From positions 261,243 through 325,242 of the forward strand of contig CAZCME010000001.1 of assembly GCA_964499705.1 (NCBI GenBank): a stretch of 64,000 nt of DNA. Reading direction: 5' to 3'. This DNA is from an uncultured bacterium (GTDB taxonomy: Bacteria > UBA8481). Of the stretch, positions 8,259 through 31,368 are shown one piece after another. The notes beneath the pieces were generated by a model that was not told the DNA's origin, did not search any database, and saw only the letters and a program-made list of their open reading frames with translations. The number at the start of each line of letters is the position of its first letter. Within the stretch, counting starts at the first letter, position 1. Position numbers and translations under genes: made by a program.

Positions 8259-9518
8259 ATGGCGAAGGCGAAAAAAGCTTCATCGGGCGCGACGCCCCTG
8301 AACGGAGTTCACTCCGACATCCGGAAGAAGGTACTCGCGGTGGCTCGCGACGGCCGCATCGACGCCGAGAAGCTCTTCGACATATCGAGCGGCCTCGAGA
8401 CGGATCCCGCCGACATGGCCACGCTGGCGACCGCGCTGGAGGAATCCGGGGTCGCGGTCGTCGACGAGGCGGTCGTCGAAGCCGTCGCGATCGAGGATGC
8501 CCCGGAACCCAAGCACGCGGAACTCGATCCGCTCCAGATCTACATCATGGAGATCTCCCGGACGCCCCTGATCGACGGCAAGACGGAGTTGAAGCTGGGG
8601 AAGGAGATCACGGACAGTCTCTTGAAGATCGGCGCCCTCGTTAAAAAGTCGGGGCTCCCGGCCGCAGAGATCGAAAAATACCTGCCGGTTCCGGGTTCGC
8701 CGCCGCCGCCGCCGCTGAAGGGCCACGACCGCAGGACGCTGGCGAAGCAGGCGAAGGAAATGGCGGAGGCGAAGAACAAGTTCGCGGAAGCCCAGCGCAC
8801 GCTCATCGAGGCCAATCTGCGCCTCGTCGTCTCGATCGCGAAGCGCTACGTCTATCACGGGCTCCACCTGCTCGATCTCATCAACGAAGGCAACCTCGGG
8901 CTCATCCGCGCCGTGGAGCGATTCGACTACAAGCGCGGCTTCAAGTTTTCCACGTACGCATCGTGGTGGATACGCCAGTCGATCCGCCGCGCGATCGCGG
9001 ACCAGGGCCGGATCATCCGCGTTCCCGTCCACATGTCGGACTCCATCAATCGCTGGATCAAATCGTCGAGAAGCCTCTCGCAGAAACTGGGCCGGGAGCC
9101 GTCGATCAGCGAGACGGCGCACGACATGGGGATCCCCGAGCCCAAGCTCCTGGAGATCATGAAGGTCTCGCAGGAACCGTCCTCTCTGGAAGCGCCAATC
9201 ATGACCGCCCAGGATTCCTCCCTTGTCGAGCTCGTCGAGGACACCTTCGCCCCTTCGCCCTACAAGACCGTCCTTTCGCTCGCCTTCTCCGAGCATCTTC
9301 AGAAAATGCTCTCGACGCTCCAGGACAAGGAACGCCGCATCCTGGAGCTCCGCTTCGGGCTCCATGGAAACAACGAGCACACTCTGGAGGAAGTCGGCAA
9401 TCTTCTCGGCATCACCCGGGAGCGCGTGCGCCAGCTCGAACTGCGCGCCCTCAAGAAACTGCGGCATCTCCGCTTGGCTGAAGAACTCTTCAGCATGATG
9501 ACGGAGATGCGCGGGTAA
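8259..9518 (+). CDS. Sigma-70 family RNA polymerase sigma factor (RpoD/RpoS-like, probably non-primary)
   Basis: DPLQIYIMEI (1.2), LIEANLRLVVSIAKRY, DLINEGNLGLIRAVERFD, KFSTYASWWIRQ, TLEEVG..ITRERVRQLE (4.2). Confidence 0.93.
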   Translation: MAKAKKASSGATPLNGVHSDIRKKVLAVARDGRIDAEKLFDISSGLETDPADMATLATALEESGVAVVDEAVVEAVAIEDAPEPKHAELDPLQIYIMEISRTPLIDGKTELKLGKEITDSLLKIGALVKKSGLPAAEIEKYLPVPGSPPPPPLKGHDRRTLAKQAKEMAEAKNKFAEAQRTLIEANLRLVVSIAKRYVYHGLHLLDLINEGNLGLIRAVERFDYKRGFKFSTYASWWIRQSIRRAIADQGRIIRVPVHMSDSINRWIKSSRSLSQKLGREPSISETAHDMGIPEPKLLEIMKVSQEPSSLEAPIMTAQDSSLVELVEDTFAPSPYKTVLSLAFSEHLQKMLSTLQDKERRILELRFGLHGNNEHTLEEVGNLLGITRERVRQLELRALKKLRHLRLAEELFSMMTEMRG

Positions 9519-10171
9519 TGGCCGACGACCTGCTCTTTCAGGAAAACGCCGTCATCTATTTCGAACGCGATCCTTCCGGATCGATTTTTCTCATCCGCGC
9601 GGGCAAGGTGGAGCTGACTTACGAGATTCCCGGCAGCGCTCCGCGCGTCCTCGGGCCGGGCGAAATCCTGGGGCTCGCGGATTCCCTCGGCGAGCACGCC
9701 CGGATCGAGACCGCGCGCGCGATGACCGATGTGACCGCCAGCAAGATCTCCGTGGAAGAACTCCGCTTCATGCTGACGAACAACGTGCAGATCGGATTGA
9801 AGGTCGTGACGTCGCTCTGCGGGGAGCTCCGCATGCTCGACGAGATGATCGTCACGCGAATGCGCGGCGGAGACACCGACGCCTACGGCAAGGGAGTCGG
9901 GCTGAAGATGATCGCGGAGCACTTCAAGCAGAAGGGCATGAATCGCGCGGCGCGTTACGCCTACGGGAAATACCTCGACACGGATCCGGACCCGATGGAC
10001 GCTCTCGACGGCGCGCTTCAGCTCGGATCCCTGTGCGAGCGCGACGCGGAGATCCAGCTCGCGATGGAGATCTACGAGATGCTCGCGCGCGAATTCGCAT
10101 CCGATCCGCGCCCGAAGCTGGCCCTGACACGCGTCCGGCAGGTGCTCGATACGTTCGGCGACCGGATATGA
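9518..10171 (+). CDS. Cyclic-nucleotide-binding-like domain protein with C-terminal TPR-like helices
   Basis: IYFERDPSGSIFLIRAGKVEL, LGPGEILG, RIETARA; TAATG overlap with the sigma gene. Confidence 0.75.
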   Translation: MADDLLFQENAVIYFERDPSGSIFLIRAGKVELTYEIPGSAPRVLGPGEILGLADSLGEHARIETARAMTDVTASKISVEELRFMLTNNVQIGLKVVTSLCGELRMLDEMIVTRMRGGDTDAYGKGVGLKMIAEHFKQKGMNRAARYAYGKYLDTDPDPMDALDGALQLGSLCERDAEIQLAMEIYEMLAREFASDPRPKLALTRVRQVLDTFGDRI

Positions 10172-10782
10172 TCCCGACGCCGCTGCTGGAAAAGTTCGGT
10201 CGCGTCTACGCCGCGGGCGATCTCGTCTTCTGCGAATTCGAGGACGGCAGCGAATGCTTCGTTGTTCATTCCGGAGAAGTCTCCATCATCAAGATCTCCG
10301 GCGGTTCCGAGAAGATCCTCGCGATCCTGAAGGAAGGGGACATCTTCGGGGAGATGGGGGTCCTGGAGAAGAAACCGCGCACCGCGACGGCGATGGCCCT
10401 GACGGAACTGACCGTCCTGGCGCTCGACCTGCGCGGGCTCCAGGCGATGGTGCAGGCGCAGCCCTTCTTCGCCTTCACGCTCGGCAAGACGCTAGGCCGC
10501 CGCATCATCCAGTCCTTCCGGCATGTCTCGAACCTCTCGATCGAGAACCCGAGAGTCCGCGTCGTCGACATGCTGCTCTGGAAGATGGAGGAACCGAAGG
10601 AAGAGGGCGGGCTGCACGTGACGCCGCACAGCCTGGCGGAGATTGCCGATTTCGTCGGCCTGCCGTTTCAGGAAGTGGAGCGCGTGATGAAGGAATACTC
10701 CGATCTCGGGCGCGTCAAGATTCTTGCGGACAAGATCGTGATCTCCGACGTGCGGAGCATGAAGCGACTGCTGAAGCTGTAG
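10168..10782 (+). CDS. Crp/Fnr family transcriptional regulator
   Basis: GDIFGEMGVLEKKPRTATA cNMP motif; C-terminal HTH SLAEIADFVGLPFQEVERVM; ATGA overlap with the upstream gene. Confidence 0.85.
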   Translation: MIPTPLLEKFGRVYAAGDLVFCEFEDGSECFVVHSGEVSIIKISGGSEKILAILKEGDIFGEMGVLEKKPRTATAMALTELTVLALDLRGLQAMVQAQPFFAFTLGKTLGRRIIQSFRHVSNLSIENPRVRVVDMLLWKMEEPKEEGGLHVTPHSLAEIADFVGLPFQEVERVMKEYSDLGRVKILADKIVISDVRSMKRLLKL

Positions 10783-11407: not shown

Positions 11408-12310
11408 CTATGCGGCGCGGTAGACCTGTTCCTTCTGTCCCGAGGGGAGGCACGACCCCCGCAGGATCAATTCTTCCGGGAGCGTGATATTTTCGAGCGC
11501 ATCCTTTTCGCCCTTCAAGGCTTTCAGGATCATCTGCACTCCGAGCGCGCCCATCTGGTCGAACGGCTGACGGACGGACCCGAGAGCGGGAGCGGTTCGG
11601 CGCGCGCTGTCGGAATCGTCGAAGCCGATGATGGCCATCTGATCCGGGACAACGATTCCCTGGCTACGCAGCGTTCGGATTCCGCCGAAGGCCTGGATGT
11701 CGCTGGAGAATATGATGGCGTCGAGATTCGGCACGCGTTCGAGGAGCTGCTTCGTCTTCAGGGCGGCGTTCTGCATGTCATAGTTCCCCTCGTCCTCCGC
11801 TTCCAGCGTCAGACCGCGCTCGGCCAGTACCGATTTGATCTCATTGTGGCGCGTCGACCCGGCCCAACCGGCGTCGAGACAGGGTCCGATGAAGCCGATC
11901 TTTTTCCGGCCGAGATCGAGCATGGCCTGAGCCGCAAGCCGCGCGCCCATCTTGTGGTCCAGGAATATGGTGCCTTTTCCCCGCACGGGCAGCGGCCGCT
12001 CGATGAAGACCGTGGGCTTGCCTTTCTTCGCGAGAGCATCAACGAGCGACTGGTCGAAATCCATGAAGACCGCCAGCAATCCGATGATGGAGGGCTCGTT
12101 CAGAACTTCGTCCAGGAATTCCTGTTTCTTTTTTCCCGCGTCGGGGCTCTGAACGTCCAGGCGCAGCCGGTATTCGTGATAGTCGCATTCCAGGAGGCCC
12201 CGACTGACGCCCTGCTCGATTTCGTGGTCGACATAGGAAGCACGATAGGCCCAGAGGATCGCGATGTGCTGCGCGCCCTCGACGAGTTTCATGGAGATCA
12301 CATCGCTCAT
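11408..12310 (-). CDS. LacI-family ligand-binding domain protein without a recognisable HTH
   Basis: DHKMGARLAAQAMLDLGRKKIGFIG, DAIIFSSDIQAFG, VPDQMAIIGFDD, PALGSVRQP, ELILRGS. Confidence 0.8.
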   Translation of the reverse strand: MSDVISMKLVEGAQHIAILWAYRASYVDHEIEQGVSRGLLECDYHEYRLRLDVQSPDAGKKKQEFLDEVLNEPSIIGLLAVFMDFDQSLVDALAKKGKPTVFIERPLPVRGKGTIFLDHKMGARLAAQAMLDLGRKKIGFIGPCLDAGWAGSTRHNEIKSVLAERGLTLEAEDEGNYDMQNAALKTKQLLERVPNLDAIIFSSDIQAFGGIRTLRSQGIVVPDQMAIIGFDDSDSARRTAPALGSVRQPFDQMGALGVQMILKALKGEKDALENITLPEELILRGSCLPSGQKEQVYRAA

Positions 12311-12449
12311 TATCCCGTCCGTCCAATCCGGCGAATTCTCCCGTTCAACCCGGGGCCACGAGAGTGAGGAAGATTCTACAGAAGCCCGGGATGAAATCAA
12401 CGCAAGAAAAATACTTCATACTTCATGCCACTTACTTCATACTTCTCAA

Positions 12450-13223
12450 GTGTCCTGGTACGTTTATATAGAAGATGAGTCGCATGGTCCCTACGACAAG
12501 GAGGAACTGAAGAACTTCCTGAAGCCGACGGATTTCGTCGCCAAGGTCGGAACGGCGGCCTGGATGGAAGCCACGAAAGATCCGGAGCTGGCCGCGCTCT
12601 TTATCGCTCCGCCTGTTCCAGCGGACGTCGACCCGATGTGGTATGTCACGCCGAAGGGGAAGCCGCAGCGGGGGAGATTCACGCCCGGGGCGCTGGCCAA
12701 CATGCTGAAAAAGAATACCTTGCAGCCGGACGATCTGGTCCGCCATGAATCCTGGGATCGGGGCGTGCTGCTCCGGGAGTCGAGCGCGTACAGGAAAATA
12801 ACGTCGGGCGGAGTCAAGCCTGAGGAGTTGACGGAGGCGGATTGGCTGGCTTCCGAGCCCGCGAAGCAACAGCCTGCCCCGTCTGTCGCCACCCCCGCCG
12901 CTTCCGGGGCCGCCCGGAGCTTGCGCAACAGGTTCAGGATGGATTTCGAGTGGACTCCGGTCACAATGGGGATGGTCGCCCTGGTCTTCCTGCTCCCGCT
13001 GCTCGGCTTTCTCGGTTACGAATACGGATATCGCGGCTCCGATATGGAATTTCGCGCGCAATACGGGGAAGCTCAGGATGAATGCGCCAAGGACGACATA
13101 TCCAGGACGATCTGCGCGGAGAGCCCCGGCCGGTGCGGATGCTCGGAAAAAGGTTCGTGCGCCATGAGGGAATGCATCAAGTTCGCGTCCTACAACCGGG
13201 TGCGAAAATCCCCTGGCAAATAG
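12450..13223 (+). CDS. Tandem GYF_2 (DUF4339)-like / single TM / 6-Cys domain protein, paralog 1
   Basis: WYVY..HGPYDKEELK and WYVTPKG..RGRFT..AL repeats, TM helix, C-x9-C-x6-CxC-x5-C-x4-C. GTG start at 12450 chosen by alignment to the paralogs. Confidence 0.75.
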   Translation: MSWYVYIEDESHGPYDKEELKNFLKPTDFVAKVGTAAWMEATKDPELAALFIAPPVPADVDPMWYVTPKGKPQRGRFTPGALANMLKKNTLQPDDLVRHESWDRGVLLRESSAYRKITSGGVKPEELTEADWLASEPAKQQPAPSVATPAASGAARSLRNRFRMDFEWTPVTMGMVALVFLLPLLGFLGYEYGYRGSDMEFRAQYGEAQDECAKDDISRTICAESPGRCGCSEKGSCAMRECIKFASYNRVRKSPGK

Positions 13224-13278
13224 ACCGTCCTGATTAACAATGGTTTTCTCTCCATGAAAATTGGCATATAAATCGCGT

Positions 13279-14040
13279 ATGCGCTGGTATCTCTTCAGGA
13301 ACGAAACGGTTCACGGCCCCTACGAAAAGGAGGATCTGAAGTCGTTCCTGACCGCGACGGATCAGGTGGCCAGGGAGGGTTCCGACGCATGGGGCGAAGC
13401 GCAGAAAGATGGCGCGCTGGAAGATATCTTCACGACGTTCATTCAGCCGGATCTGGAATGGTATGTCACTTTGAAAGGAAAACCGACACGCGGACCGTTC
13501 GCCCAGTCGGCGCTTTTAAATCTCCTTAAGAAAAATGAAATTGGCCCGAATGACTCCATTCGCCACACCTCGTGGCCGAAGGCCGTGCCACTTCGGGAGA
13601 CGCGCATCCACAAATACATGTCCGATGCGGCGGTCCGGCTGGAGGATGTTCCTCCCGATGAGTGGAAGGAGGCTCCGAAGGTCGCCGGTTCAACAGCGCC
13701 CGTCAGGCCATCCGGATCGGCGAGTTCAGCCGCCGGAAAGAAGAACAAGTTCAAGCTGGATATCGAATGGAACGCGATGTCCATCTCCATCGTGATCGCG
13801 GCCCTTCTTTTGCCCCTGGTCGGATACATGAGCTACGATTCCGCCTACAAGGGCTCCGATCTCGAACTGAGGATCCAATACGGCAAGCCCGCGGGCGACT
13901 GCCGGACGGACGAGACCTCCAAGAATATCTGCGGCGATCGTCCCCTGAAATGCGCGTGCAAGACAAAAGGGGATTGCGGCATGCCCGAATGCGCCAGGCT
14001 GGGCCAGATTCTGGACGCGAAAGCGGGGCGCCATCCGTGA
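13279..14040 (+). CDS. Tandem GYF_2-like / TM / 6-Cys domain protein, paralog 2
   Basis: MRWYLFRNETVHGPYEKEDLK, WYVTLKGKPTRGPFAQSAL, TM, same Cys spacing. Confidence 0.75.
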   Translation: MRWYLFRNETVHGPYEKEDLKSFLTATDQVAREGSDAWGEAQKDGALEDIFTTFIQPDLEWYVTLKGKPTRGPFAQSALLNLLKKNEIGPNDSIRHTSWPKAVPLRETRIHKYMSDAAVRLEDVPPDEWKEAPKVAGSTAPVRPSGSASSAAGKKNKFKLDIEWNAMSISIVIAALLLPLVGYMSYDSAYKGSDLELRIQYGKPAGDCRTDETSKNICGDRPLKCACKTKGDCGMPECARLGQILDAKAGRHP

Positions 14041-14063
14041 TTCGCGGCAGGGACGCGTAGGCG

Positions 14064-14798
14064 GTGCGCTGGTATCTCTACCGGAACGATACCGTTCACG
14101 GCCCTTATGAGAAGGAGGAACTGAAGACGTTCCTCGCGCCCGCGGACAAGATCGCACGGGAGAACACGGACGCGTGGACGGATGCGTCCGGCGATGAGCT
14201 TCTCGAGGATATTTTCACGACGTTTCTGCAGCCCGTCCTGGAATGGCACGTCACGCCGAAAGGCAGGCCGCAGCGCGGGCCCTTCGCCCAGTCCGCTCTG
14301 CTGAACCTTCTCAAGAAAAAGGAAATCGCGCCGGATGATCTCCTGAAACACGAGTCCTGGCCGAAGGCCGTTCCGCTGAGAGATACTCGGATCTATCGGT
14401 ATCTGAAGGATGATCTGGTCAAATTGGAGGACGTGCCGCCGGACGAGTGGAAAGAAGCGCCCCGGCAGAAAAATACGACGGCGCCCGTGCCGCCGTCAGG
14501 TCGGAAGAGGCGCATCAAGCTGGACTTTGAACTGACGACGGGCCGGAAGATCATGATCGGCCTCGTCGTCATGACTCCGTTGATCGGCTTTATCGGTTAT
14601 GACAATTTCTATCGCGGTTCCGACATCGCGTTCCGGATCGAGCATGGAACGGCGACCGGCAATTGCACGACGGACGAGATATCAAAAACCATCTGTCCCA
14701 AAAATCCCGGCAAATGCGGATGCAATCCCAAGGGCGATTGCTCCATGCCGGCCTGCGAGATGTACCGGAAAATGCAGCAGCAGGGGCAGGCGAAGTAG
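14064..14798 (+). CDS. Tandem GYF_2-like / TM / 6-Cys domain protein, paralog 3
   Basis: MRWYLYRNDTVHGPYEKEELK, WHVTPKGRPQRGPFAQSAL, TM, same Cys spacing. Confidence 0.75.
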   Translation: MRWYLYRNDTVHGPYEKEELKTFLAPADKIARENTDAWTDASGDELLEDIFTTFLQPVLEWHVTPKGRPQRGPFAQSALLNLLKKKEIAPDDLLKHESWPKAVPLRDTRIYRYLKDDLVKLEDVPPDEWKEAPRQKNTTAPVPPSGRKRRIKLDFELTTGRKIMIGLVVMTPLIGFIGYDNFYRGSDIAFRIEHGTATGNCTTDEISKTICPKNPGKCGCNPKGDCSMPACEMYRKMQQQGQAK

Positions 14799-14805
14799 GG
14801 AAGAC

Positions 14806-15447
14806 TCAGTACGAGTCGTAGGTTCTTCCCTCGGTGGACATCATCGTGTTGTTGACGCGGACTCTTCCTTCCACATTCACGTAATGCCATCCCCGCCAGT
14901 TGCCGTTGGGATTGACGCCGGCGATGTTGCACTGCCAGACACCGTTGGACCAGTTGGTCTGGCCTCCCCAGAAGCTGACCGTGCCGTCATCGGAGACTTC
15001 GCTCATCGGGATGTGGTCGATGTAATTAATGAGAAAGACGCCGAACGCGCCCTTCTCGATCGTGGTGCCGTTCGAATCGTCACCCGACCATTGCTCGCCG
15101 TTGTTGGGGATGCCGACGCCGGGGCCCTCCCGGAGCGACCACGGGAATCCGCCGGTCGAATTCGCGCCGGCCTGGTTATAGGAATAGTTGACGCCTTTCA
15201 TCGTGAAGAAGACATTGATGGCGGTGCGGAGAGACGCGAGATGGGACCAGGTCCGGCCTTCGCGGGCTTTGCGGAGCGCATGCTTGATGTTGGAGAGGCT
15301 GACGGCGGCGAGAACGCCGATGATGGCGCAGACCACGAGGAGCTCGATCAGGGTGAAACCGTCGCGTTTCGCGGAAGAAAGGCGGGACACGCGGGGCCGT
15401 TGCCGACGGCCGGAGCGTCCGCGCGGGATTTCACGGAGCTGCTGCAT
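14806..15447 (-). CDS. Type IV pilin-like protein, paralog A
   Basis: Basic leader, KRDG|FTLIELLVV prepilin site with Glu5; KAREGRT..HL..LRT; C-terminal GWHY..G.VR.NN..STEG..Y..Y. Confidence 0.88.
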   Translation of the reverse strand: MQQLREIPRGRSGRRQRPRVSRLSSAKRDGFTLIELLVVCAIIGVLAAVSLSNIKHALRKAREGRTWSHLASLRTAINVFFTMKGVNYSYNQAGANSTGGFPWSLREGPGVGIPNNGEQWSGDDSNGTTIEKGAFGVFLINYIDHIPMSEVSDDGTVSFWGGQTNWSNGVWQCNIAGVNPNGNWRGWHYVNVEGRVRVNNTMMSTEGRTYDSY

Positions 15448-15455
15448 GGGACTCT

Positions 15456-16133
15456 TCAGTATTTATAATACTCTTGTCCGTCGGTGGACAAGGAGTTGTT
15501 GTTGATGCGGACATTGCCGGTGGTGTTTTTGTAATACCACCCTCTCCAGTTGCCGTTGATGTTCGGCACCGCGGTTGTCACGAAGTTGTCGCACCATCCG
15601 GCCGTGCCGCCCTTGCCCTCGTTGTAATAGCCGTCACCGCAGAGCGGATCGCCGTTCTTTCCTATAAGTGCGGAGGGCATCTGAGCGAGAAATCTGTTCA
15701 CACCGGCACCATAGCCCCAATCACCGACTTCGCCGCCGCCTGTTTCAATCCTCCATCCATCCTGACCGTCCTCCATCAGGTACCCTTCGCCGCCTACGGG
15801 GGGCGAAGGTCCCCAGCTTCCCTCCTTCAGGTTCCACGGAAATCCGTTCGTCGAATTCGGTGTGACCATATAGTTTCCATTATATTTCGGCTTGTATTGT
15901 CCCCCGCCTCCGGCGCCGGGCCCTCCCATGGCGGAGAACGCCTGGACGGCCGTTCGCAGGGTATTGAGATGCACGTAGGTTTTTCCTTCGCGGGCCTTCC
16001 AGATCGCGCGCTTCAGGTTCGCGAACATGAGGACCCCGAGAATGCCGAGGATGACGCAGATGACGAGGAGCTCCAGGAGCGTAAACCCCTTTTCGTTTCT
16101 ACGGGCTTGTGAGAAGCGCGCGCTGAGATTCAT
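15456..16133 (-). CDS. Type IV pilin-like protein, paralog B
   Basis: NEKG|FTLLELLVI; same conserved N- and C-terminal blocks as paralogs A and C. Confidence 0.88.
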   Translation of the reverse strand: MNLSARFSQARRNEKGFTLLELLVICVILGILGVLMFANLKRAIWKAREGKTYVHLNTLRTAVQAFSAMGGPGAGGGGQYKPKYNGNYMVTPNSTNGFPWNLKEGSWGPSPPVGGEGYLMEDGQDGWRIETGGGEVGDWGYGAGVNRFLAQMPSALIGKNGDPLCGDGYYNEGKGGTAGWCDNFVTTAVPNINGNWRGWYYKNTTGNVRINNNSLSTDGQEYYKY

Positions 16134-16192
16134 ACGATCGATTCGGCCTTTCGGATCCGGAGTTGAGGCGCCGGCGGAACAAAAATCAAGCC

Positions 16193-16204
16193 GCAAGCGA
16201 TTGC
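16193..16204. promoter_or_regulatory. Palindromic GCAA-N4-TTGC candidate operator upstream of pilin B
   Basis: GCAAGCGATTGC, identical to 16972-16983. Confidence 0.5.
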
Positions 16205-16211
16205 ACGGCCT

Positions 16212-16242
16212 ATTATAGGCATACCAGGAGAGTGACTGTCAA
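16212..16242 (-). promoter_or_regulatory. Candidate sigma70 promoter of pilin B (TTGACA-N19-TATAAT)
   Basis: Plus strand has ATTATA at 16212-16217 and TGTCAA at 16237-16242. Confidence 0.5.
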
Positions 16243-16267
16243 CCCCGGAAATGAGAAAAAGTGAGAA

Positions 16268-16924
16268 TCAGTAAAGGTCGTATTGCTTGCCGTCGGTGGA
16301 GACGCACGTGTTGTTGATCCGTACTTTTCCGTCCACGTTGCGGTAGTGAAAACCGCGGTCGTTACTGTTCGCGATGCCATCCCCCGGGTTGGATTGCGCG
16401 TCGGTCGTGGGCCGGTTCGTCTCCCAGACTCCCCCCAGGAAATAAAAGCCGTCGTCGAAGGCGATGTGGAATTTCCCGTCCTTGGCGACTTCCGCCGAGG
16501 GAAAGTCCGTGAGGTAAGTGGTCAGATACGCGCTGAATTGCCCCTTTTCCACGACGCACGGCCAGTTCGGATCACGTTCATCGCCATGCCAGTCGGATCC
16601 GCCGGCGGGAGGAGCGACCACCGCGCCTGTGGGATCCTGCATCAGAGCGTAGGGATAGCCGTTGGTGTGATGAGCGGCGATGGAGTCGATCTCGTAGTTG
16701 TATTCCATGCCCTTCTGCGCATGGAAAAGCTCCACCACCGTGCGCACCGTCTGCAGGTGCTCATAGGTTCTGCCTTCACGGGCTTTCCAGAGAGCCCTCT
16801 TCAGGTTGGCAAACATGACAACCGCCAGAATTCCCAGGATCGCCACGATGACGAGCAGCTCGATCAGCGTAAAACCTCGACCGTTCGTTGATGATAGGGA
16901 TATCCGTTTCCTGAGTGTGCTCAC
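16268..16924 (-). CDS. Type IV pilin-like protein, paralog C
   Basis: NGRG|FTLIELLVI; GTG start at 16924 preceded by AAGGAG; same conserved blocks. Confidence 0.88.
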   Translation of the reverse strand: MSTLRKRISLSSTNGRGFTLIELLVIVAILGILAVVMFANLKRALWKAREGRTYEHLQTVRTVVELFHAQKGMEYNYEIDSIAAHHTNGYPYALMQDPTGAVVAPPAGGSDWHGDERDPNWPCVVEKGQFSAYLTTYLTDFPSAEVAKDGKFHIAFDDGFYFLGGVWETNRPTTDAQSNPGDGIANSNDRGFHYRNVDGKVRINNTCVSTDGKQYDLY

Positions 16925-16971
16925 GCCCGCTCCTTCCGGAGCCATCCGCTGATTCCCCACTACCTGCTTAT

Positions 16972-20009: not shown

Positions 20010-20633
20010 ATGGCGATGCGCACGATGGCTTCTGAGTTCCGCGGGAAAGGTCGCGGCTTCACGCTTGTGGAACTCATGGCGGTCGTCATCATCATCATCA
20101 TCCTGCTGGCCCTGTCGTTGATGGTTCCCCAGTATTCCGATTTTCGCGACCGGATCACGATCAAGGGTTTCTCCACATCGATCCTGACCAAGTTGCGCGA
20201 GGCGAAGAACCTCAGCAAGGCGCTCGGCAAGAACGTCAACGTGGTGGTGGACCTCGACAATGAAAAAGTATGGATCTCCGTCGATAAAGTTCAGTATGGC
20301 AGCGCTCTCTCCGCGCCGTCGTCCAAGTGCGACATCAAGGGTTTCCAGGAATGGAATGACGCCGGGGTGACGAAGACGACGGGAAGCTGCACTATCACGT
20401 ACTATAATCGGGGCACGTCCATTACAGAGAACATGGATGGGCCGGATGGTATTTTCCACATCGGTTCAACGTCCGATGTGTACGCCTCCGGCGGTAATAA
20501 TGCTCTGAACATGAAAACGATCGCCGTGCTGAACGCTCCGGGCCGGGCCGAGTGGTTCAACTCCGGGTGCGTGGGAACGGCGAATTGGGCGACTTCGTGG
20601 GGGTGGCCCAAGTGCAAGGAGCTGACAAATTGA
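20010..20633 (+). CDS. Minor pilin, FimT/GspH-like
   Basis: KGRG|FTLVELMAV; first of four overlapping prepilin-like genes. Confidence 0.8.
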   Translation: MAMRTMASEFRGKGRGFTLVELMAVVIIIIILLALSLMVPQYSDFRDRITIKGFSTSILTKLREAKNLSKALGKNVNVVVDLDNEKVWISVDKVQYGSALSAPSSKCDIKGFQEWNDAGVTKTTGSCTITYYNRGTSITENMDGPDGIFHIGSTSDVYASGGNNALNMKTIAVLNAPGRAEWFNSGCVGTANWATSWGWPKCKELTN

Positions 20634-21061
20634 CGATCCGGCCGGCTGCTTATCGTCGTCGCCGCACGAGCGCGGGTATGACCTTCATGGAAGTCATGGT
20701 CGCGGCCACGATCATGTTCACGGGCGCGGTTGTCATGATCACGGTCCTCCCGAAGCTGATCGAGGCGGGATACTCCCGTTCCTCCCGCGACATGTCCTAC
20801 ATCTTCGGGATGTCGAAGATGGACGAGATCATGGCGTCTCCCTATTCCACTATTACATCGGGTTCTGGAAGTTTCACCGAGCTCATGCCCGATGTGCCCG
20901 AGGCCTACAATTTTGAATATCAATACACCGCGACCGAGGTCACGACGGATAATCTACCCACGGATCTCCTGAAGCGCGTCACGCTTGTCATCACATGGGG
21001 CGATGACAGCGATAAATCGGACACGTATGTTTTCTACATGGCGGACAAGGGAGATGACTAG
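20630..21061 (+). CDS. Minor pilin, PilV/GspI-like
   Basis: TTG start after AAGGAG; TSAG|MTFMEVMVA; C-terminal LKRVTLVITW. Confidence 0.78.
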   Translation: MTIRPAAYRRRRTSAGMTFMEVMVAATIMFTGAVVMITVLPKLIEAGYSRSSRDMSYIFGMSKMDEIMASPYSTITSGSGSFTELMPDVPEAYNFEYQYTATEVTTDNLPTDLLKRVTLVITWGDDSDKSDTYVFYMADKGDD

Positions 21062-21062
21062 A

Positions 21063-21803
21063 ATGACAGGGATATCTCGCAGGGCGCTCCGCCGGCATCG
21101 AGGCATCTCCGGCCTCTCCCTTCTCGAAATGCTCGTGGCCACCCTCATCTTCTCGATCCTTATGCTCGGCTTCACATCACTCTTCCGCTTTTCGATCACG
21201 GCGTGGTTCAACGCCGTCGGCCGGTTCGGCAACATCCAGAACCTGGCCGGTGCCTTCGACATCATCGCCAGCGACCTGAGAAGCGCCCTGCCGCCCTACG
21301 ATACCTGCAGCGATATATATCTCCTGGGGCAGGATGAGGGTTCGACCGTGGATCCTGACCTGACGAATTCGATCCAGGACGAACTTGTGTTCCATTGCCC
21401 CACGTATACCAGTAAGGAAGGGCAGTTCAACAGCCCGAACGGCCAGCAGTGGAGCGCCGCTGCCCGCATCGGAAATGAATTGGCAAAGCGCGGATATTGG
21501 ATGCGCCGCGACAGTACTAATGACACAATTCTCATGCAGGGCCGAGACGTCGCGGACACGAGCGATTACTGTCCCGAGATCACCTATGGATTTTCGATCT
21601 TTGACGAGTTCGCCTATTCCGTATCCAAGTTCAACGTGGAATATTACGACGGCGCGACCTGGTTGGACGATTGGAGCACCAACACGCAGGGCAAATTGCC
21701 GAAACTCGTGCGCGTCACGCTTCAATCCACCAAGAGCGGCGCCGCGATGACGATGGCGTATGTGGTGCATCCGAGAGCCCAGGGGACGTATATCACGCAA
21801 TGA
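21063..21803 (+). CDS. Minor pilin, PilW/GspJ-like
   Basis: ISG|LSLLEMLVA, IASDLRSA, C-terminal FNVEYYDG..W.DDW..KLPKLVRVTL. Confidence 0.82.
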   Translation: MTGISRRALRRHRGISGLSLLEMLVATLIFSILMLGFTSLFRFSITAWFNAVGRFGNIQNLAGAFDIIASDLRSALPPYDTCSDIYLLGQDEGSTVDPDLTNSIQDELVFHCPTYTSKEGQFNSPNGQQWSAAARIGNELAKRGYWMRRDSTNDTILMQGRDVADTSDYCPEITYGFSIFDEFAYSVSKFNVEYYDGATWLDDWSTNTQGKLPKLVRVTLQSTKSGAAMTMAYVVHPRAQGTYITQ

Positions 21804-24451
21804 TGAATAACAGGAAGCGGAGCGCCCGGCGATCCGTGCAGGAAGACGGCGTGGCGCTCATCACCGCCATCTGGATGACCGTCATCGGCATCATGCTCGT
21901 GACCACCCTCGCGACGCTCATCACCGGCAACATCGGCCTTGCCGCCAGCATCGGCGCGGACGCGAAAGCCCGGATCGCCGCGCACTCCGGAGTAGAAAAG
22001 GCGATCGCGTATCTGATCGCCGACCGCCCCAGCGGACTACTGGATACGCCGGGAGTCATCATCACGGAAGTGCAGAACAGGCCACAGGATTACATTCGGG
22101 ATCTGCTGCCGCTTCATAGCACCTCTATTGGAGCGGGAGGCAATACATTCGATACCTCGTTTGAGTTTTGCGGAAACGACACATTATGGATCAAGGGCGG
22201 TGGCACCCTGTTGGATGCGAGTCTGGAAACCTATGTCGCGTCAACCGGCGGGATAGATGCGGTTACAGGAGCCAAGGTCTTTAATTTCAAGGCGATGACA
22301 GCTACGTTTGCCACGGATGGATCGGGATCCAACAGGTGGCTTCGTTCCTGCACTGTGGCCGTCAGCCCGAACGATACGGTTAATTTCGGTTGCTGGTACT
22401 ATACTGCGGGAATCAGCGATCATCAGATGCGGCTTATTCTTCAGTGGAGAGACGCTCAGGGGACGGTGATCGGTTCAGTAACAAAAGATTTTGATCTCGA
22501 CACTCACGGCGCATGGCGGAAGCTGGAGCAGCGAGTTTCGCTGGCTCCTGCCAACACTGTGGGAGCCACGCTGTTTATCACGCCCCGCTATGTCACCGCC
22601 GGTTTTTCCGCCGTGGATATCATGATCGATGATGCCTATATCTCCTACGGAGACACGAATCCCGCCACGGTCCGCAGGTATGAGTATATCGAGATCCAGA
22701 ATTGCGACACGGTCGATCACACCTTCGGCGTGGATACCAACCAATGTCCCGATACCGCGTATTGGATCGCGGTCCGGAATGGTCCGGGCAGCATCGGCAG
22801 TCCGAATACGGGGGGCAATGACACGCTCTTCATCTATCCGATGAGCTATGACAATTGCAAGAACCCGGGGAACTCTGACGGCACCGACGATCCCTGGGGC
22901 ACGGATTCGAACTTCTTCGCCAGCGATTCCACGTTGAAAGTCGGAGCTGTCGGAGTGATCGTCGTCGACGATGCCGACACGGTCTCCATTGCGGCGCTCA
23001 TGGGGAAGAAACCTTCATCCATCCAATGGTTCGGTCTCCGTCGAAAGAACGGCGACAGCTTTGTTCATACCTTGGGCGAGGCTTACACGACCTATTCGGG
23101 GGGTATTACATTCGACAGTTACAATAACAGCATGCTGAACGATACCGGCTGCACCGTGATCATCGGTTTCGGCGGAAAACCGAAAACAACCGCGCCTTAT
23201 TGGTTTGGTGTGCCGCTACCGGATTCGGCGCGTCAGCAGAATACGGGCTTCACATCCTGGCCGAGCTGGCAGAAGTCCGGTTACAAGAACAACGATCTTG
23301 ATGATACGATCGATAATTCCGCCACGCCGCCGCTCTGGTTCGGCGACCTGAACGAGTCGACCTGGAATCGGGCGGCTCCCACTCCGGGTGAAGGCATCAT
23401 ATCGACATCCCGGCAGGGGGTCGATGGCGCGACCGACACGTGGTATAAATTCGCGTTCGATTCCTTCGTGAAGCATGACACGTCGACATATGATATCTAT
23501 TATCGCGTGCGCATCTTCGACGAAGGCGCCAAGGTGAACATCAATTACCTGCATCACAGGCCGACGTCGGCATCCTGGGAATCGCACGTCTTCATTAATC
23601 TCCTCTGTGAGACTTCGGGGACGGCTTTCAAGACGACCTCTTCGTACTGGGATAATTCCGCCGCATCGCAGAAAGCGGCCGCGAGGAATGCGGACAGCAT
23701 GGCGCACAATCTCATGCGCGGGGGCATATTCCCCAACGGGTCCACGAACGATTCGTTGATCACGCCCTTGTCCGCATACATGATCCATTCGGACTCGGGA
23801 GGGACATCCGCCACGAGCCGGGGGCGCAGGTTCGATTCCACATACATACCCTTCGTCTCGATTTACGGCTACAACGAGGCCCTGGTCTTTCCCGTCAACA
23901 TCAACATGGCGGATCTGCCCGTCGTCCGCGCCGCGCTCATCTGGGCGTTGATCGGCAATTTCAACCTGACCGATTCGGTGGGCTCGACCTTCGCGATCTC
24001 CAACTGGAACACCGCGCGTGACAGCGCGCGCGTCCTCGCGGACAGCGTGCTCCGTTATCTCACCGGCCTCGATACGACCCGGTCCAACGACACGGTCCTT
24101 TATCGCGAATCGGACATCCTGAAGGTAGCAGCCACCGCCGGAGACCGAGCTCAGCTCCAGTGGGCCATCAACAACAACCGGATCACCCGCGCCTTCAGCT
24201 GCGCTTCGACGAACTACTTCACGATCCACTGCACCGGATTCGCCTTCCAGAAAGGCGCCAATCCGTACACGGACACCCCCGTGGCCCAGAACCGGATCAT
24301 CGCGGTGGTGCGGAGGTACACGGACGCCGACAAGGCGGATATCCTGTACTGGCGCGAGACCATGGAGGTCGCCGACGCGAGTATCTTCGCGCATACGACC
24401 CCGATCGGTTCCTACAGGACACCCTCCTACAGGTGGGATCCGACGCAGTGA
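21800..24451 (+). CDS. Large PilX/GspK-like minor pilin (883 aa) with inserted domains
   Basis: EDG|VALITAIW without Glu5, A..AAHSGVEKAIAYL, RIFDEGAKVNIN, VNINMADLPVV, STNYFTIHCTG; ATGA overlap with the upstream gene. Confidence 0.78.
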   Translation: MMNNRKRSARRSVQEDGVALITAIWMTVIGIMLVTTLATLITGNIGLAASIGADAKARIAAHSGVEKAIAYLIADRPSGLLDTPGVIITEVQNRPQDYIRDLLPLHSTSIGAGGNTFDTSFEFCGNDTLWIKGGGTLLDASLETYVASTGGIDAVTGAKVFNFKAMTATFATDGSGSNRWLRSCTVAVSPNDTVNFGCWYYTAGISDHQMRLILQWRDAQGTVIGSVTKDFDLDTHGAWRKLEQRVSLAPANTVGATLFITPRYVTAGFSAVDIMIDDAYISYGDTNPATVRRYEYIEIQNCDTVDHTFGVDTNQCPDTAYWIAVRNGPGSIGSPNTGGNDTLFIYPMSYDNCKNPGNSDGTDDPWGTDSNFFASDSTLKVGAVGVIVVDDADTVSIAALMGKKPSSIQWFGLRRKNGDSFVHTLGEAYTTYSGGITFDSYNNSMLNDTGCTVIIGFGGKPKTTAPYWFGVPLPDSARQQNTGFTSWPSWQKSGYKNNDLDDTIDNSATPPLWFGDLNESTWNRAAPTPGEGIISTSRQGVDGATDTWYKFAFDSFVKHDTSTYDIYYRVRIFDEGAKVNINYLHHRPTSASWESHVFINLLCETSGTAFKTTSSYWDNSAASQKAAARNADSMAHNLMRGGIFPNGSTNDSLITPLSAYMIHSDSGGTSATSRGRRFDSTYIPFVSIYGYNEALVFPVNINMADLPVVRAALIWALIGNFNLTDSVGSTFAISNWNTARDSARVLADSVLRYLTGLDTTRSNDTVLYRESDILKVAATAGDRAQLQWAINNNRITRAFSCASTNYFTIHCTGFAFQKGANPYTDTPVAQNRIIAVVRRYTDADKADILYWRETMEVADASIFAHTTPIGSYRTPSYRWDPTQ

Positions 24452-24533
24452 GGGATCCCCTGGCGGGGGAGAATACGAAGCATCGAGTTCGTCGCCCGGA
24501 CCGGGAAAAGCCGCGTTTTCATAACATGCTAAT

Positions 24534-24545
24534 GCAACCGCTTGC
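24534..24545. promoter_or_regulatory. GCAA-N4-TTGC candidate operator upstream of the PorV-like gene
   Basis: GCAACCGCTTGC, one mismatch to the pilin copies in gene orientation. Confidence 0.45.
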
Positions 24546-24590
24546 GCAAGGTCAAAAAAGTGTTTTCATTCTTCCGACGCGTGTGCTAAG

Positions 24591-26477
24591 ATGAGGTTCA
24601 TGCCGAGGCTTCGCCACGCGTTCTCCTGCCTGTTCCTCCTGCTCTCCGCCTCGGAAAGCGCCTTCGCCGCCACCGCTTCCGGCGCCGGCACGACGGGCGC
24701 GACATTTCTCGAGATCGGAATCGGAGCCCGTTCCGCGGCGATGGGGGAGGCCAACACGTCGTGGGCGGACGATGTCTACGGCATGTACTTCAACCCGGCC
24801 GGCATCGCGACCGTCCGGAGGCAGGAAGTCGGCTTCGCGCATAACACGCTTTTTTTGGATCTCGACTACAATTATCTCGGCTACGTCCATCCGCTCGGCG
24901 ATGCCTCCTCCATCGGCGTCAGCGGCACCTATGTCGATCTCGGCGACGTCGAGCGGCGCGAGATCATCGCCGGTGGCGGCCCTTCCGGCGCCCTCGGCAA
25001 CGCCTCCGCCTATGATCTCTCCTTCTCGCTCACCTACGCACGAACGCTTTCGGAAGTGATCGATCTCGGCGGGACCCTTAAAGTCATACACGAGACGCTG
25101 GACAATTACAGCGCCAGCGCCGTTGCGGTGGATCTCGGAGCCAAGTGGCGGCCTCCTGTCGAGGGCCTGACAGTCGGCCTGTCGGTCCTCAATCTCGGCT
25201 CGAACCTGAAGTTCGTCGCCTCGGGCGACGAGCTTCCGATCAGCATCCGCTTCGGAGCCGGATACCGCCCGCCGAGCCGCCGTTGGGGTCTGCAGGGCGA
25301 CCTCGTCTATGTCAAGAACCAGGATGTGGAAGGGAAGATCGGCGGCGAATGGTGGGTCTGGGAAGACCATATCGCGATCCGTGCCGGAGCTAATTCCGCC
25401 AACGACGCGGGGAGCGGATTCACGGTGGGCGCGGGATTCAAGTGGAACGATATTCTCCTGGATTATGCCTACGTGCCCTTCGGCGATCTCGGCGACCAGA
25501 ATCTCATCTCGCTCGCCTACCAGTTCGGAGCCCCCCGCGGAGTTCCGCCGGAACGCACCATGACGCGCTATGAACCCTCTCCGACTCAACCCGCATCCGT
25601 CTCCGCGCCGCCGCCGTCCACACCCTACGCGACGGGCGAGGCGGCCGGTTCCACTGTCACGATGTACACAACGGCGCCGGCCGCTCAACCCTGGGGCGTT
25701 TCCGTCACGCCTTTCGCCTACCGTTCCGGCCCTCCGGAGTACGATTGGATGAGCCGCGCGACGGCGGACGTGCTTGCCAAAGACTGGAAGAAGCGCGGGC
25801 TCCTGAACACCGCCATGAGCTCGGCGCGATTCCAGGTCGAGGGTGAATTCTGGATCGTCGGGCGCAACCTTATTCTCTCCGCCAGATTGTCGGGCGACGG
25901 ATTCCGGTACGCGGCCGATGCGAACGGAGACGCTGACAAGCCCTTCGAAGTCTGGACCGCTCTTCTTCAGAAATTGAACGATGCTCTGCGCGAGCGCGGC
26001 GTCCTCTCCGCACCCGCGCCGGTTCCCGCGCCCGCGCCGCAGTCCTCCGAATGGTCGCCCGCTCCATCCTGGGCCTCCCGACCACCCGCTCCCGCGGCTC
26101 CGTCCCAACCTGCCTACACGGCGTCTACACCGCTCCCGCCGAGCCCCGCTTCGACCGCGCCCCGGAAGGGCGTGGCGGTCGCGACGATCATGGAGCACGG
26201 CAATGCGGTTTCCTCGGCTCGATCCTCGATGCTCACGACCGCCGTCCGCGACGCGCTCGTCGGTCTCGGATTCTCCACGGACGCCTCCACGGCCCAGTAC
26301 AGATTCGACGCGACCTATGCCGATCTCGATGACGGCTCGACGGTCGTCTACGGCAAGATCGTGGACCGGGCCACCGGCATTCCGATCGCCAACGTCGAAG
26401 TCTACGGATCCGCATCGAATCCGGCGTCCTTCGCATCCCGCATCGCCGACGCCGTGATGTTCAAACTTCCCAAATAA
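24591..26477 (+). CDS. PorV/PorQ-like (UPF0164) outer-membrane beta-barrel with C-terminal extensions
   Basis: Signal peptide; GTTGATFLEIGIGARSAAMGEA, YFNPAGI, LDYAYVPFGDLG..ISLAYQF; then Pro-rich linkers and two small alpha/beta domains. Confidence 0.8.
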   Translation: MRFMPRLRHAFSCLFLLLSASESAFAATASGAGTTGATFLEIGIGARSAAMGEANTSWADDVYGMYFNPAGIATVRRQEVGFAHNTLFLDLDYNYLGYVHPLGDASSIGVSGTYVDLGDVERREIIAGGGPSGALGNASAYDLSFSLTYARTLSEVIDLGGTLKVIHETLDNYSASAVAVDLGAKWRPPVEGLTVGLSVLNLGSNLKFVASGDELPISIRFGAGYRPPSRRWGLQGDLVYVKNQDVEGKIGGEWWVWEDHIAIRAGANSANDAGSGFTVGAGFKWNDILLDYAYVPFGDLGDQNLISLAYQFGAPRGVPPERTMTRYEPSPTQPASVSAPPPSTPYATGEAAGSTVTMYTTAPAAQPWGVSVTPFAYRSGPPEYDWMSRATADVLAKDWKKRGLLNTAMSSARFQVEGEFWIVGRNLILSARLSGDGFRYAADANGDADKPFEVWTALLQKLNDALRERGVLSAPAPVPAPAPQSSEWSPAPSWASRPPAPAAPSQPAYTASTPLPPSPASTAPRKGVAVATIMEHGNAVSSARSSMLTTAVRDALVGLGFSTDASTAQYRFDATYADLDDGSTVVYGKIVDRATGIPIANVEVYGSASNPASFASRIADAVMFKLPK

Positions 26478-26730
26478 ATCCGCATGCGGTTGCACTGTCG
26501 ATATTGCAGATAAAAGCGCCCGCTGATACCATGGACGGGTTGCAGAGCCACATCTGAAAAAATACAGAAATCCGGGGTCTCTAACGGACAGGAGCGCATA
26601 CTTTGTCGATGCGCTCGTCAAGCGGCCCGGATACATTGCCGAAAACAAAATGAGGCACTTGCGCCGCGGGCGATCGAGCCGCGGTCGCCTGGGCCGCGGG
26701 CCTTCGTGCCGGATGGAGCAGACACGCTAA

Positions 26731-28437
26731 ATGTACGGTGTTGAGACACCCAGGATCGGTCAGATCCTCATCGATTCCGGATTCCTGGACGATGAGAAGC
26801 TCAACGAGCTCCTCGAGCTCCAGAAGGAACGCGGGATCCGGATCGGCGACCTGGCGCTCGAGCTGGGTCTTGTCACCGAGGACGACATCCTGAACGCGCT
26901 CTCGGCGCAGCTGAACATCCCGATCATCAGCCTCGACGACATCATCATCGACCCGAAAGTTCCGCTCCTTCTGCCCGCCCGTCTCGCCAAGCGCCACGGC
27001 ATCCTCCCGATCGAGGTCGCCGACGAGCGGGTCGTTCTCGCGGTCAACGACCCCATCAATCTCCAGGGCATCGACGACGCCCGCATGATGCTCCAGAAGG
27101 AAATCGATCTCGTCCTCGTCCAGAAGGCTCCGCTTCTCCGGCACCTCGACGAAATCTTCGGCGGCGCCGAATCGGTGCAGGACATTCTGACGAACATCAC
27201 GGAGCACGACCTGGAGCTTGTCAAGGACGAGGCGGATCTGACGAGGACGGGCGGCGGTGAAGACGTCGAGGAGAACAAGGTCGTCAAGTATGTCAACCTG
27301 ATCATCCTGGAAGCGATCAAGAACCGCGCGTCCGACGTTCACCTGGAACCCTTCGAGAACGAATTCGTCATCCGCCAGCGCATCGACGGCGTTCTGCACA
27401 AGATGCCCGCTCCGCCGAAGGCCGTTCAAAACGCGGTCACGTCCCGCATCAAGGTCATGGCGGAGCTGAACATCGCGGAGTCGCGCCTCCCGCAGGACGG
27501 CCGCATCAAGCTGAAGATCGCGGGCAAGGAGATCGATCTCCGCGTGGCCACGCTGCCGACCGTCTTCGGCGAATCCGTCGTCTTGCGGCTTCTCGACCGC
27601 ACCGCGCAGATCCTGACCCTCGAACAGCTCGGCATGGAATTGGAAGTGCGCGAGAAGACGGAAGGAATCATCAACAATCCGAACGGCGTCGTCATCGTCA
27701 CCGGTCCGACGGGTTGCGGCAAGACATCCACGCTGTACGCCTTCGTCGACAAGCTGAACGATCCCGAGGACAAGATGATCACGGTCGAGGATCCCGTGGA
27801 GTATGAAGTCGAAGGACTCGTGCAGGTCCAGGTTCGCGAAAAAGTGGGCCTGACATTCGCCGCCTCGCTCCGTTCCATTCTCCGCCAGGACCCCGACATC
27901 GTCCTGATCGGTGAAATCCGCGACGTGGAAACGGCGGAGATCGCCATCCAGGCCTCCTTGACGGGCCATCTCGTCCTGACTACCCTGCACACGAACGAGG
28001 CCGCCGGAGCCATCACGCGACTCATCGACATGGGCATCGAGCCCTTCCTGCTGACGTCGACGATCCTCGGCGTCTGCGGGCAGCGGCTCATCCGGACCAT
28101 CTGTCCGATGTGCAAGGAGATCGTGGAGATGCCCGTGGAGCGGATCAAGGCCGTGGCTCCCAAGGGCTTCGACCCCGCCAAGGCCACGCTCTACCGGGGC
28201 CGCGGCTGCGAGCAGTGCGCGGGAACGGGATACAAGGGAAGAACGGGAATATTCGAGTTGTTCATCATGTCCGAGGAGATCCAGGAGATGGTTCTGCAGA
28301 AATCGCCCGCGAACATGCTCCACGCCAAGGCGCGCGAGTACGGCATGCAGACGATGGCGGAAGACGGATGGAAAAAAGTTCTGATGGGATCGACGACGCT
28401 GGAAGAAGTGCAGCGCGTCGCGCCGATGGATAAATAG
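26731..28437 (+). CDS. pilB: Type IV pilus assembly ATPase PilB/GspE with MshEN domain
   Basis: RIGQILIDSGFL..L..Q MshEN, ASDVHLEP, PQDGRI, GPTGCGKT, LRQDPD, two CxxC pairs. Confidence 0.93.
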   Translation: MYGVETPRIGQILIDSGFLDDEKLNELLELQKERGIRIGDLALELGLVTEDDILNALSAQLNIPIISLDDIIIDPKVPLLLPARLAKRHGILPIEVADERVVLAVNDPINLQGIDDARMMLQKEIDLVLVQKAPLLRHLDEIFGGAESVQDILTNITEHDLELVKDEADLTRTGGGEDVEENKVVKYVNLIILEAIKNRASDVHLEPFENEFVIRQRIDGVLHKMPAPPKAVQNAVTSRIKVMAELNIAESRLPQDGRIKLKIAGKEIDLRVATLPTVFGESVVLRLLDRTAQILTLEQLGMELEVREKTEGIINNPNGVVIVTGPTGCGKTSTLYAFVDKLNDPEDKMITVEDPVEYEVEGLVQVQVREKVGLTFAASLRSILRQDPDIVLIGEIRDVETAEIAIQASLTGHLVLTTLHTNEAAGAITRLIDMGIEPFLLTSTILGVCGQRLIRTICPMCKEIVEMPVERIKAVAPKGFDPAKATLYRGRGCEQCAGTGYKGRTGIFELFIMSEEIQEMVLQKSPANMLHAKAREYGMQTMAEDGWKKVLMGSTTLEEVQRVAPMDK

Positions 28438-28440
28438 CGG

Positions 28441-31343: not shown

Positions 31344-31368
31344 GAGTCAGATCCTTGAGGTCCCGCTG

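Follow-up and report, generated by a model that had tools for sequence, protein, structure and literature searches.

The stretch of DNA analysed here (the window) is 64,000 nt of the genome G000, which is about 96% complete; bare coordinates are positions in the window. It carries three adjacent genes, A, B and C, each encoding a protein with two GYF_2 domains, a linker, one predicted membrane helix and a module containing six cysteines. We propose that these proteins are inner-membrane adaptors linking type IV pilin variants to a headless sugar-sensing core of the LacI type in the cytoplasm, a reading to which we assign a probability of about 45%. The proposal is based on features that can be observed directly, namely the architecture of the proteins, the cores and pilins encoded beside them, and two public proteins in which core and membrane protein form a single chain. 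It is further based on a divergent core-GYF gene pair that is kept as its surroundings change, on a pairing of gene A with a pilin that is mirrored elsewhere in the genome, on the predicted topology, and on the precedent of GltJ. The first-pass annotation of this locus had missed the association and fusion with headless LacI-type cores, as well as the association with pilins.

Architecture of the triplet

The arrangement of three adjacent genes with this layout, reported in the first-pass annotation, was borne out by Pfam searches, hydropathy and cysteine spacing. The features are as follows.

12450..13223, + strand: gene A, GYF_2-GYF_2-linker-membrane helix-6Cys, 257 residues, GTG start; its sister is the paralog at G000:C2:402550
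12960..13016, + strand: predicted membrane helix of A, residues 171-189, from hydropathy (mean Kyte-Doolittle 2.27)
13083..13175, + strand: 6-Cys module of A, first to last Cys
13279..14040, + strand: gene B, same layout, 253 residues
13774..13830, + strand: predicted membrane helix of B, residues 166-184, from hydropathy (mean Kyte-Doolittle 2.18); helix 166-189 in the AlphaFold2 (AF2) model
13900..13992, + strand: 6-Cys module of B, first to last Cys; the 50-residue region has an AF2 predicted local distance difference test score (pLDDT) of 90.9
14064..14798, + strand: gene C, same layout, 244 residues, GTG start
14550..14606, + strand: predicted membrane helix of C, residues 163-181, from hydropathy (mean Kyte-Doolittle 1.52)
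14664..14756, + strand: 6-Cys module of C, first to last Cys

Genes A and B are separated by 55 bp, and B and C by 23 bp. GYF_2 (PF14237) scored 48.6, 43.4 and 42.2 bits in A, B and C, respectively, against a Pfam cut-off of 25.8, with two matched stretches in each protein. No other Pfam family matched the three proteins at E ≤ 1, and an NCBIfam scan of them returned no match. The two W-Y..GP(Y/F)..L repeats claimed earlier hold as two GYF_2 stretches per protein but not to the letter, the second repeat of A reading GRF instead of GP(Y/F). In an AF2 model of protein B computed from a 12-row alignment, both GYF domains had pLDDT values of ~88-90. The best Foldseek match to this model was the GYF domain of GltJ (7z3c; E 0.012, probability 1.0), and the first seven rows were all GYF domains, none of which reached E ≤ 0.001. 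Similarly, 7z3c was the sole match at E < 0.001 when the family profile was searched against PDB sequences. The Pfam and Foldseek results support the GYF fold suggested earlier.

Kyte-Doolittle analysis revealed a single hydrophobic helix in each protein, with no Cys N-terminal to it and six C-terminal to it. Y(R/K)GSD and the Cys spacing 9-6-1-5-4 (C-x9-C-x6-CxC-x5-C-x4-C) were found in A, B and C; the spacing, earlier described as invariant, is so in the triplet but gives way to 6 to 9 Cys across 21 GYF-Cys proteins. Among 24 proteins, Lys and Arg were more numerous before than after the helix in 17, equal in six and fewer in one. The predicted topology is single-pass, N-in/C-out, with the GYF domains inside and the Cys module outside, in line with the bitopic arrangement first envisaged.

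The family comprises seven genes in G000 and 16 genes at 13 loci across four of the five genomes of the phylum. The Cys module is present in 11 of the 16 genes; in the other five, its place is taken by a different domain or by a short tail.

Headless LacI-type cores

The gene divergent from A encodes a LacI-type core.

11408..12310, − strand: LacI-type effector-binding core (Peripla_BP_3), 300 residues, divergent from gene A across 139 bp

The Peripla_BP_3 match had an E value of 4.5e-27, and the profile matched solved LacI-family cores at 1e-36. The LacI helix-turn-helix (PF00356), present at 10 places in G000, gave no match in this gene, and no signal peptide was visible. Peripla_BP_3 has 15 matches in G000: 10 with the LacI helix-turn-helix, four complete without it (headless) and one cut by a contig end. 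Two of the four complete headless cores adjoin family genes and, across the phylum, a headless core directly adjoins a GYF gene at six of the 13 family loci.

An HMMER search identified two public proteins, P0017 and P0023, with the order Peripla_BP_3-GYF_2-GYF_2-membrane helix-Cys in one chain. The core of the window is 41% identical to that fused in P0017. A word-index search for longer fused forms found none, which is uninformative as the HMMER search found the two fusions.

The divergent core-GYF pair is retained in G000, G002 and G004 despite differing flanking genes. In a quick tree, the three divergent cores formed one clade (Shimodaira-Hasegawa approximate likelihood ratio test, SH-aLRT, 98). 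All four members of a second core clade (support 99) are tied to a GYF protein, three by adjacency and one by fusion, and the core of P0017 fell on a third branch with head-bearing proteins (support 88). Presence or absence of the head was assigned by PF00356 search, the automatic head labels on the tree being unreliable. The tree thereby places the GYF-associated cores on two or three distinct branches.

Several family loci other than that in the window lie near GH3, GH94, glucoamylase-like, CBM9 or sugar-binding genes. A glycoside hydrolase cluster elsewhere in G000 includes, at G000:C16:46025-47961 (L077, L081), a tandem of a head-bearing LacI gene and a headless paralog; the counterpart of this LacI gene in G002 (L098) is followed by a pilin gene. 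At L064:3425-5781, L066:7094-10149 and L099:6952-9923, a membrane-protein pair followed by a sugar-type ATP-binding cassette (ABC) ATPase lies beside family genes or a headless core. Pfam assigned GGDEF to the pair in L064 and L066; the N-termini in L099 look similar.

Pilin neighbours

Three pilin-like genes lie on the opposite strand, facing the triplet.

14806..15390, − strand: pilin-like p1, carrying the N_methyl motif; faces gene C convergently, with 7 bp between them; start possibly up to 15447
15456..16133, − strand: pilin-like p2, same clade as p1
16268..16945, − strand: pilin-like p3, sister (99/97) of the pilin adjoining gene A's sister on contig C2

Genes A and p3 mirror the C2 GYF gene and its pilin, both the GYF proteins (100/100) and the pilins (99/97) being sisters. 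Across the phylum, eight of the 13 family loci have pilin neighbours: at four, the next called gene is a pilin, and at four more, the pilin is the last gene of an ABC-permease-X-pilin cassette beside the locus. A core or a pilin is a neighbour at 12 of the 13 loci; the 13th has an ABC gene and a permease gene, then the contig end. Each of the five loci of G000 has a pilin motif or headless core no more than 3 kb away (no more than 1.5 kb for four of them), as compared with 120 of 3,460 called genes and none of the 13 other GYF_2 genes, where the gene calls for the control come from a simple dicodon model and the paralogs are not independent. Pilins of the window clade adjoin family genes in four of four cases in G000 and in six of 14 phylum-wide. 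Finally, 8-Cys genes of one subgroup pair with a separate pilin clade and the ABC cassette at three loci.

In the pilins of the window clade (14806-16945; L126:2390-4376; L128:62-1297; L097, L098), the N-terminal helix is followed by a K/S-ARE-G/S motif, and the C-terminus is aromatic and conserved. They often occur in tandem arrays of two to three, twice beside head-bearing LacI genes. The window also contains a type IV pilus locus (20010-32586) with four minor-pilin-like genes, including one for an 871-residue PilX-like protein without a Pfam match, a PorV/PorQ-family gene, two genes for PilB-like ATPases, PilT and a PilC-like gene. The minor-pilin-like, PilB-like, PilT and PilC-like genes lie 5-18 kb downstream of the triplet.

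The cysteine module

The Cys module is compact, at ~31 residues, has no counterpart in the family and structure libraries searched, and is reused on lipoproteins, caspase-like proteins and TPR-CHAT proteins. The strict 6-Cys pattern occurred 11 times in the six frames of G000 and zero times in each of 10 residue shuffles; its occurrence is thus not due to chance. Profiling the module and examining gene neighbourhoods, as the first-pass annotation had recommended, yielded 20 matches among 1.84 billion representative proteins, 10 with GYF and 10 without, and revealed the headless LacI-type core and pilin partners. In genomes, the profile matched four of the five of the phylum and none of 396 others.

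Carriers without GYF were lipoprotein-like (3-4 copies), caspase-like C14 (three copies), TPR-CHAT, or large proteins with carboxypeptidase-regulatory repeats. The N-terminus, judged by eye, was signal-like or lipoprotein-like in seven of these 10, while three were apparently cut at the start. The lipoprotein-like carriers (L005:5901-6506, L031:1120-2049, P0006-P0008) consist almost entirely of three to four 6-Cys modules with Pro/Ala linkers and have no Pfam family. The caspase-like Peptidase_C14 carriers (L006:5862-7109, L034, L035, P0009, P0011) have a CxxC segment and three C-terminal 6-Cys modules; they occur in G000, G002 and G003, most copies having a signal-like N-terminus. In the TPR-CHAT protein (L058:2733-6110, P0024), one 6-Cys module stands right behind a signal-like N-terminus. 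With the TPR-CHAT and C14 carriers, two types of caspase-clan protease bear the module.

Among the 21 GYF-Cys proteins, 10 have six Cys, nine have eight, one has seven and one has nine; the number is thus even in 19. Histidine is not conserved, and CxxC is missing from 20 of the 21 modules. G000 also encodes a VKOR-DsbA-type fusion. Based on these data, together with the Lys and Arg bias and the signal-like carriers, the module is likely an outer, disulfide-bonded one, with three (or four) disulfides predicted. The disulfide-bonded outer module proposed earlier is therefore likely.

The AF2 model of the module region of protein B (50 residues) had a pLDDT of 90.9, a predicted template modelling score (pTM) of 0.69 and three short helices. 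Foldseek returned no match to it at E ≤ 10, and VIA-align none among 48,161 chains at Z ≥ 2. Structure prediction followed by Foldseek, also suggested at the outset, thus matched the module to no characterised family. The lack of a structural match is weak evidence of a possible new fold, as the model comprises only 50 residues. In sequence searches, the best Pfam E value was 0.11 among 18 members and 0.016 among 28, in one member only each time; the best PDB match, partial and at E 0.6, was SIAH1. The ESM Atlas gave no usable feature match for the module, and every structure row was below TM 0.5. For the lipoprotein P0008, its best score was 0.79, to clusters of small Myxococcota lipoproteins, which we treat as a lead only.

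Two identities were considered and rejected. A resemblance to hevein found no counterpart in searches: no G000 copy matched Chitin_bind_1 (PF00187) at E ≤ 10, nor did any member of the alignments. A SIAH-type zinc finger is contradicted by a best E value of 0.6 across 18 of 38 positions, the lack of a conserved His and the rarity of CxxC.

The module had also been described as diversifying, which the substitution data do not bear out. The proportion of nonsynonymous differences (pN, 0.26-0.39) was lower than that of synonymous differences (pS, 0.53-0.92) in seven of seven pairs, with synonymous sites near saturation and hence low power. The divergence of the module was about that of the linker and helix, and in most pairs the module was somewhat less conserved than the GYF domains.

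Family history and other features of the window

B and C are 56-58% identical. By comparison, A is 55% identical to its contig C2 paralog and 40-44% identical to B and C, and A and the C2 paralog are sisters on the tree with support 100/100. The three neighbouring family genes, taken initially for a tandem triplet of paralogs, are therefore not a simple triple duplication; as judged by identity and tree, the array combines two older subfamilies. Among public proteins, P0031 is A-like (53% identity to A) and P0004 is B/C-like (59% to B). Each lies on a public contig 9,186 bases long, probably one and the same.

The fifth genome of the phylum (86% complete) had a single-GYF match only. A related locus, L093, labelled Candidatus Hydrogenedentota, was kept outside the count of 13. 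Metagenome scans gave 170 pattern matches, none of them confirmed. The Cys-motif DNA pattern picked out five metagenome stretches, of which three were Cys-rich low-complexity frames and two had no matching open reading frame of at least 30 residues. G000, G001, G003 and G004 also encode soluble GYF proteins with a conserved short helical C-terminal domain (G000:C6:221547-221972, L012, L020, L025).

Upstream of A, at 12411-12445, are TACTTCA heptamer repeats; heptamers of this family recur in intergenic DNA throughout the genome (60 loose matches). Promoter and terminator scans gave three and seven sites against 1.7 and 5.7 expected, respectively, and were thus uninformative. At 8259-10782, a Sigma-70 factor gene has close behind it a pair of genes for cNMP-binding proteins, of which one carries a TPR-like tail and the other is Crp-like.

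Proposed function and alternatives

If the proteins are adaptors, the tandem GYF pair would dock a headless LacI-type core, as the GltJ GYF domain docks AglZ. The core would bind a sugar or sugar phosphate, probably derived from glucan breakdown, and we infer that its state could pass through the inner membrane and influence how the adjoining pilin type is assembled or deployed, with no direct control of transcription along the way. The Cys module would serve as a small, exchangeable contact surface rather than an essential sensor. An extended version, in which the system is a sugar-to-pilus switch for which LacI-family sensors repeatedly lost their head and were recruited via the tandem GYF to adaptors that select the pilin variant, with a three-disulfide outer contact, is in our judgement unlikely.

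Several observations weigh against the adaptor proposal. Both partners, core and pilin, were found at only two of the 13 loci, including that of the window. All of the loci come from four related genomes, so that inherited gene order inflates the counts. Eight of the 14 clade pilins have no family gene beside them, some being on short contigs, and 12 headless cores on the tree are free-standing, six of which have no adjoining family gene, one of the six having it as second neighbour. The fusions P0017 and P0023 are single-member clusters from assembled public runs, and P0023 could be plain read-through of an overlapping gene pair such as that at G000:C2:201727. No conserved proline-rich stretch was evident in the three adjacent type-A cores, although the GltJ GYF domain binds a proline-rich sequence. 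Further, the neighbourhood in the window has no sugar-utilisation genes, and two of the 21 modules have an odd number of Cys.

The fusions and the adjacency fit equally well with an outside-in receptor, in which the outer module binds an envelope or external ligand and the GYF pair holds or releases the headless core, which then forms mixed dimers with DNA-binding LacI paralogs and switches glucan-use and pilin genes. Three head-bearing LacI proteins fall in one clade (100) with the type-A cores; one of the three is encoded in tandem with a headless core at G000:C16 and the other two beside same-clade pilins in G002. Signalling between compartments has moreover been proposed for GYF membrane proteins (PMC11135422). 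The earlier idea of a receptor with an outer ligand site is nonetheless weakened in that five of the 16 family genes replace the module or have only a short tail. In addition, the module shows no excess of amino-acid change, and its occurrence on unrelated, secreted-looking proteins better suits a generic tag than a dedicated sensor. We consider such a receptor possible, if on the unlikely side. Somewhat more doubtful is a pilin-specific assembly accessory like TfpY, with the LacI-type neighbours incidental and due to shared sugar-controlled regions. Consistent with this idea, the three genes of the window are set opposite three pilins, a single gene on C2 has a single pilin opposite it, the A-p3 pair is mirrored, and the cassette beside the 8-Cys subgroup and its own pilin clade recalls PilG/H/I (PMC3724824). 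Also in its favour are the TfpY-like membrane accessories with their variable periplasmic domains (PMC11841053) and a Xanthomonas pilin-like protein annotated with DUF4339 (PMC10333488). Such an accessory leaves unexplained the two LacI-core fusions and the four loci with a core but no pilin. It also sits poorly with G004:C10, where there is one gene for two pilins, and with the three membrane helices of TfpY.

A further alternative is that there is no functional link and that generic GYF membrane proteins underwent a lineage-specific expansion and are carried with variable envelope and sugar islands. The genomes are indeed few and related, G000 has 20 GYF_2 genes in total, and many cores and pilins stand alone. 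We nevertheless regard this alternative as very improbable: the other GYF_2 genes of G000 lack such neighbours altogether, cores from two or three separate branches are associated with the family in addition to the two fusions, and the core-GYF pair is kept as its flanks change.

Implications

Were the extended version of the adaptor proposal correct, a repressor fold would control a surface filament directly, bypassing transcription. Bacterial GYF domains are widespread, and AglZ, the partner of GltJ, is the one partner found in the literature consulted (PMC11135422). Based on fusion and gene order, headless LacI-type cores are a concrete candidate for a second class of GYF partner, one tied to pilin variants. 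Reuse of the Cys module is seen in one barely sampled phylum; its distribution is narrow and its host uncultured. All of the parts are small and expressible.

Comparison with known systems

According to PMC11135422, most bacterial GYF proteins have an N-terminal GYF domain followed by a membrane-associated receptor module, signalling across the membrane or between compartments has been proposed for them, and partners of GYF proteins other than GltJ are expected elsewhere. In the same paper, the GltJ GYF domain, which binds a proline-rich sequence, recruits the cytoplasmic partner AglZ to a membrane machine. The earlier statement that no described family has this layout therefore holds for the Cys module, which matches none, but not for a GYF domain before a membrane module. 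The legend of Fig. S3 in that paper names the themes TonB-C, ZnR, RDD, CD225, DUF805, DUF2628, Yip1, PrsW, DUF4359 and PilZ; a Cys module, a LacI core and a pilin are not among them.

The triplet proteins resemble GltJ/AgmX of Myxococcus xanthus in their N-terminal GYF_2, flexible Pro/Ala-rich linker, membrane helix and outer module. They differ in having two GYF domains, a Cys mini-domain outside, and a LacI-type core and pilins as neighbours. GltJ also has a zinc ribbon before its GYF domain, whereas A, B and C have no Cys before the helix. GltJ ends in a TonB-C domain; Pfam found only GYF_2 in A, B and C, and the three TonB_C matches of G000 lie in other genes. A Robl_LC7 (MglB-type Roadblock) search of G000 gave no match; MglA was not searched.

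The FimB-like proteins TfpX, TfpY and TfpZ of Pseudomonas aeruginosa are membrane accessories linked to certain pilin types, and their periplasmic part is variable. TfpY-like proteins combine three membrane helices with a beta-sheet domain, and their cytoplasmic N-terminus is short (PMC11841053). In the triplet proteins, by contrast, a cytoplasmic GYF pair of 135 residues precedes a single helix, and the Cys module is helical; no homology is claimed. The order ABC ATPase-permease-third gene-pilin beside five of the 13 loci, with ABC and permease beside a sixth, is similar to that of the PilG/PilH/PilI cassette of M. xanthus (PMC3724824), a likeness in gene order; the window locus has no such cassette. 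With respect to LacI/GalR proteins, the partner core begins where the core of a LacI protein begins. Unlike them, it lacks the helix-turn-helix, and so cannot bind DNA in the manner of LacI; in P0017 and P0023, a core of this type forms one chain with a membrane protein.

Literature searches on GYF_2 in connection with type IV pili, cysteine-rich periplasmic modules or LacI, on DUF4339, its former name, as well as on stand-alone or headless LacI and on prepilin-LacI, returned nothing on this system, most subscription papers being outside their scope. Overall, the family is lineage-restricted and belongs to the class of GYF membrane adaptors, being neither GltJ nor TfpY. Its general layout has already been described; its Cys module is undescribed, and its partner is unexpected.

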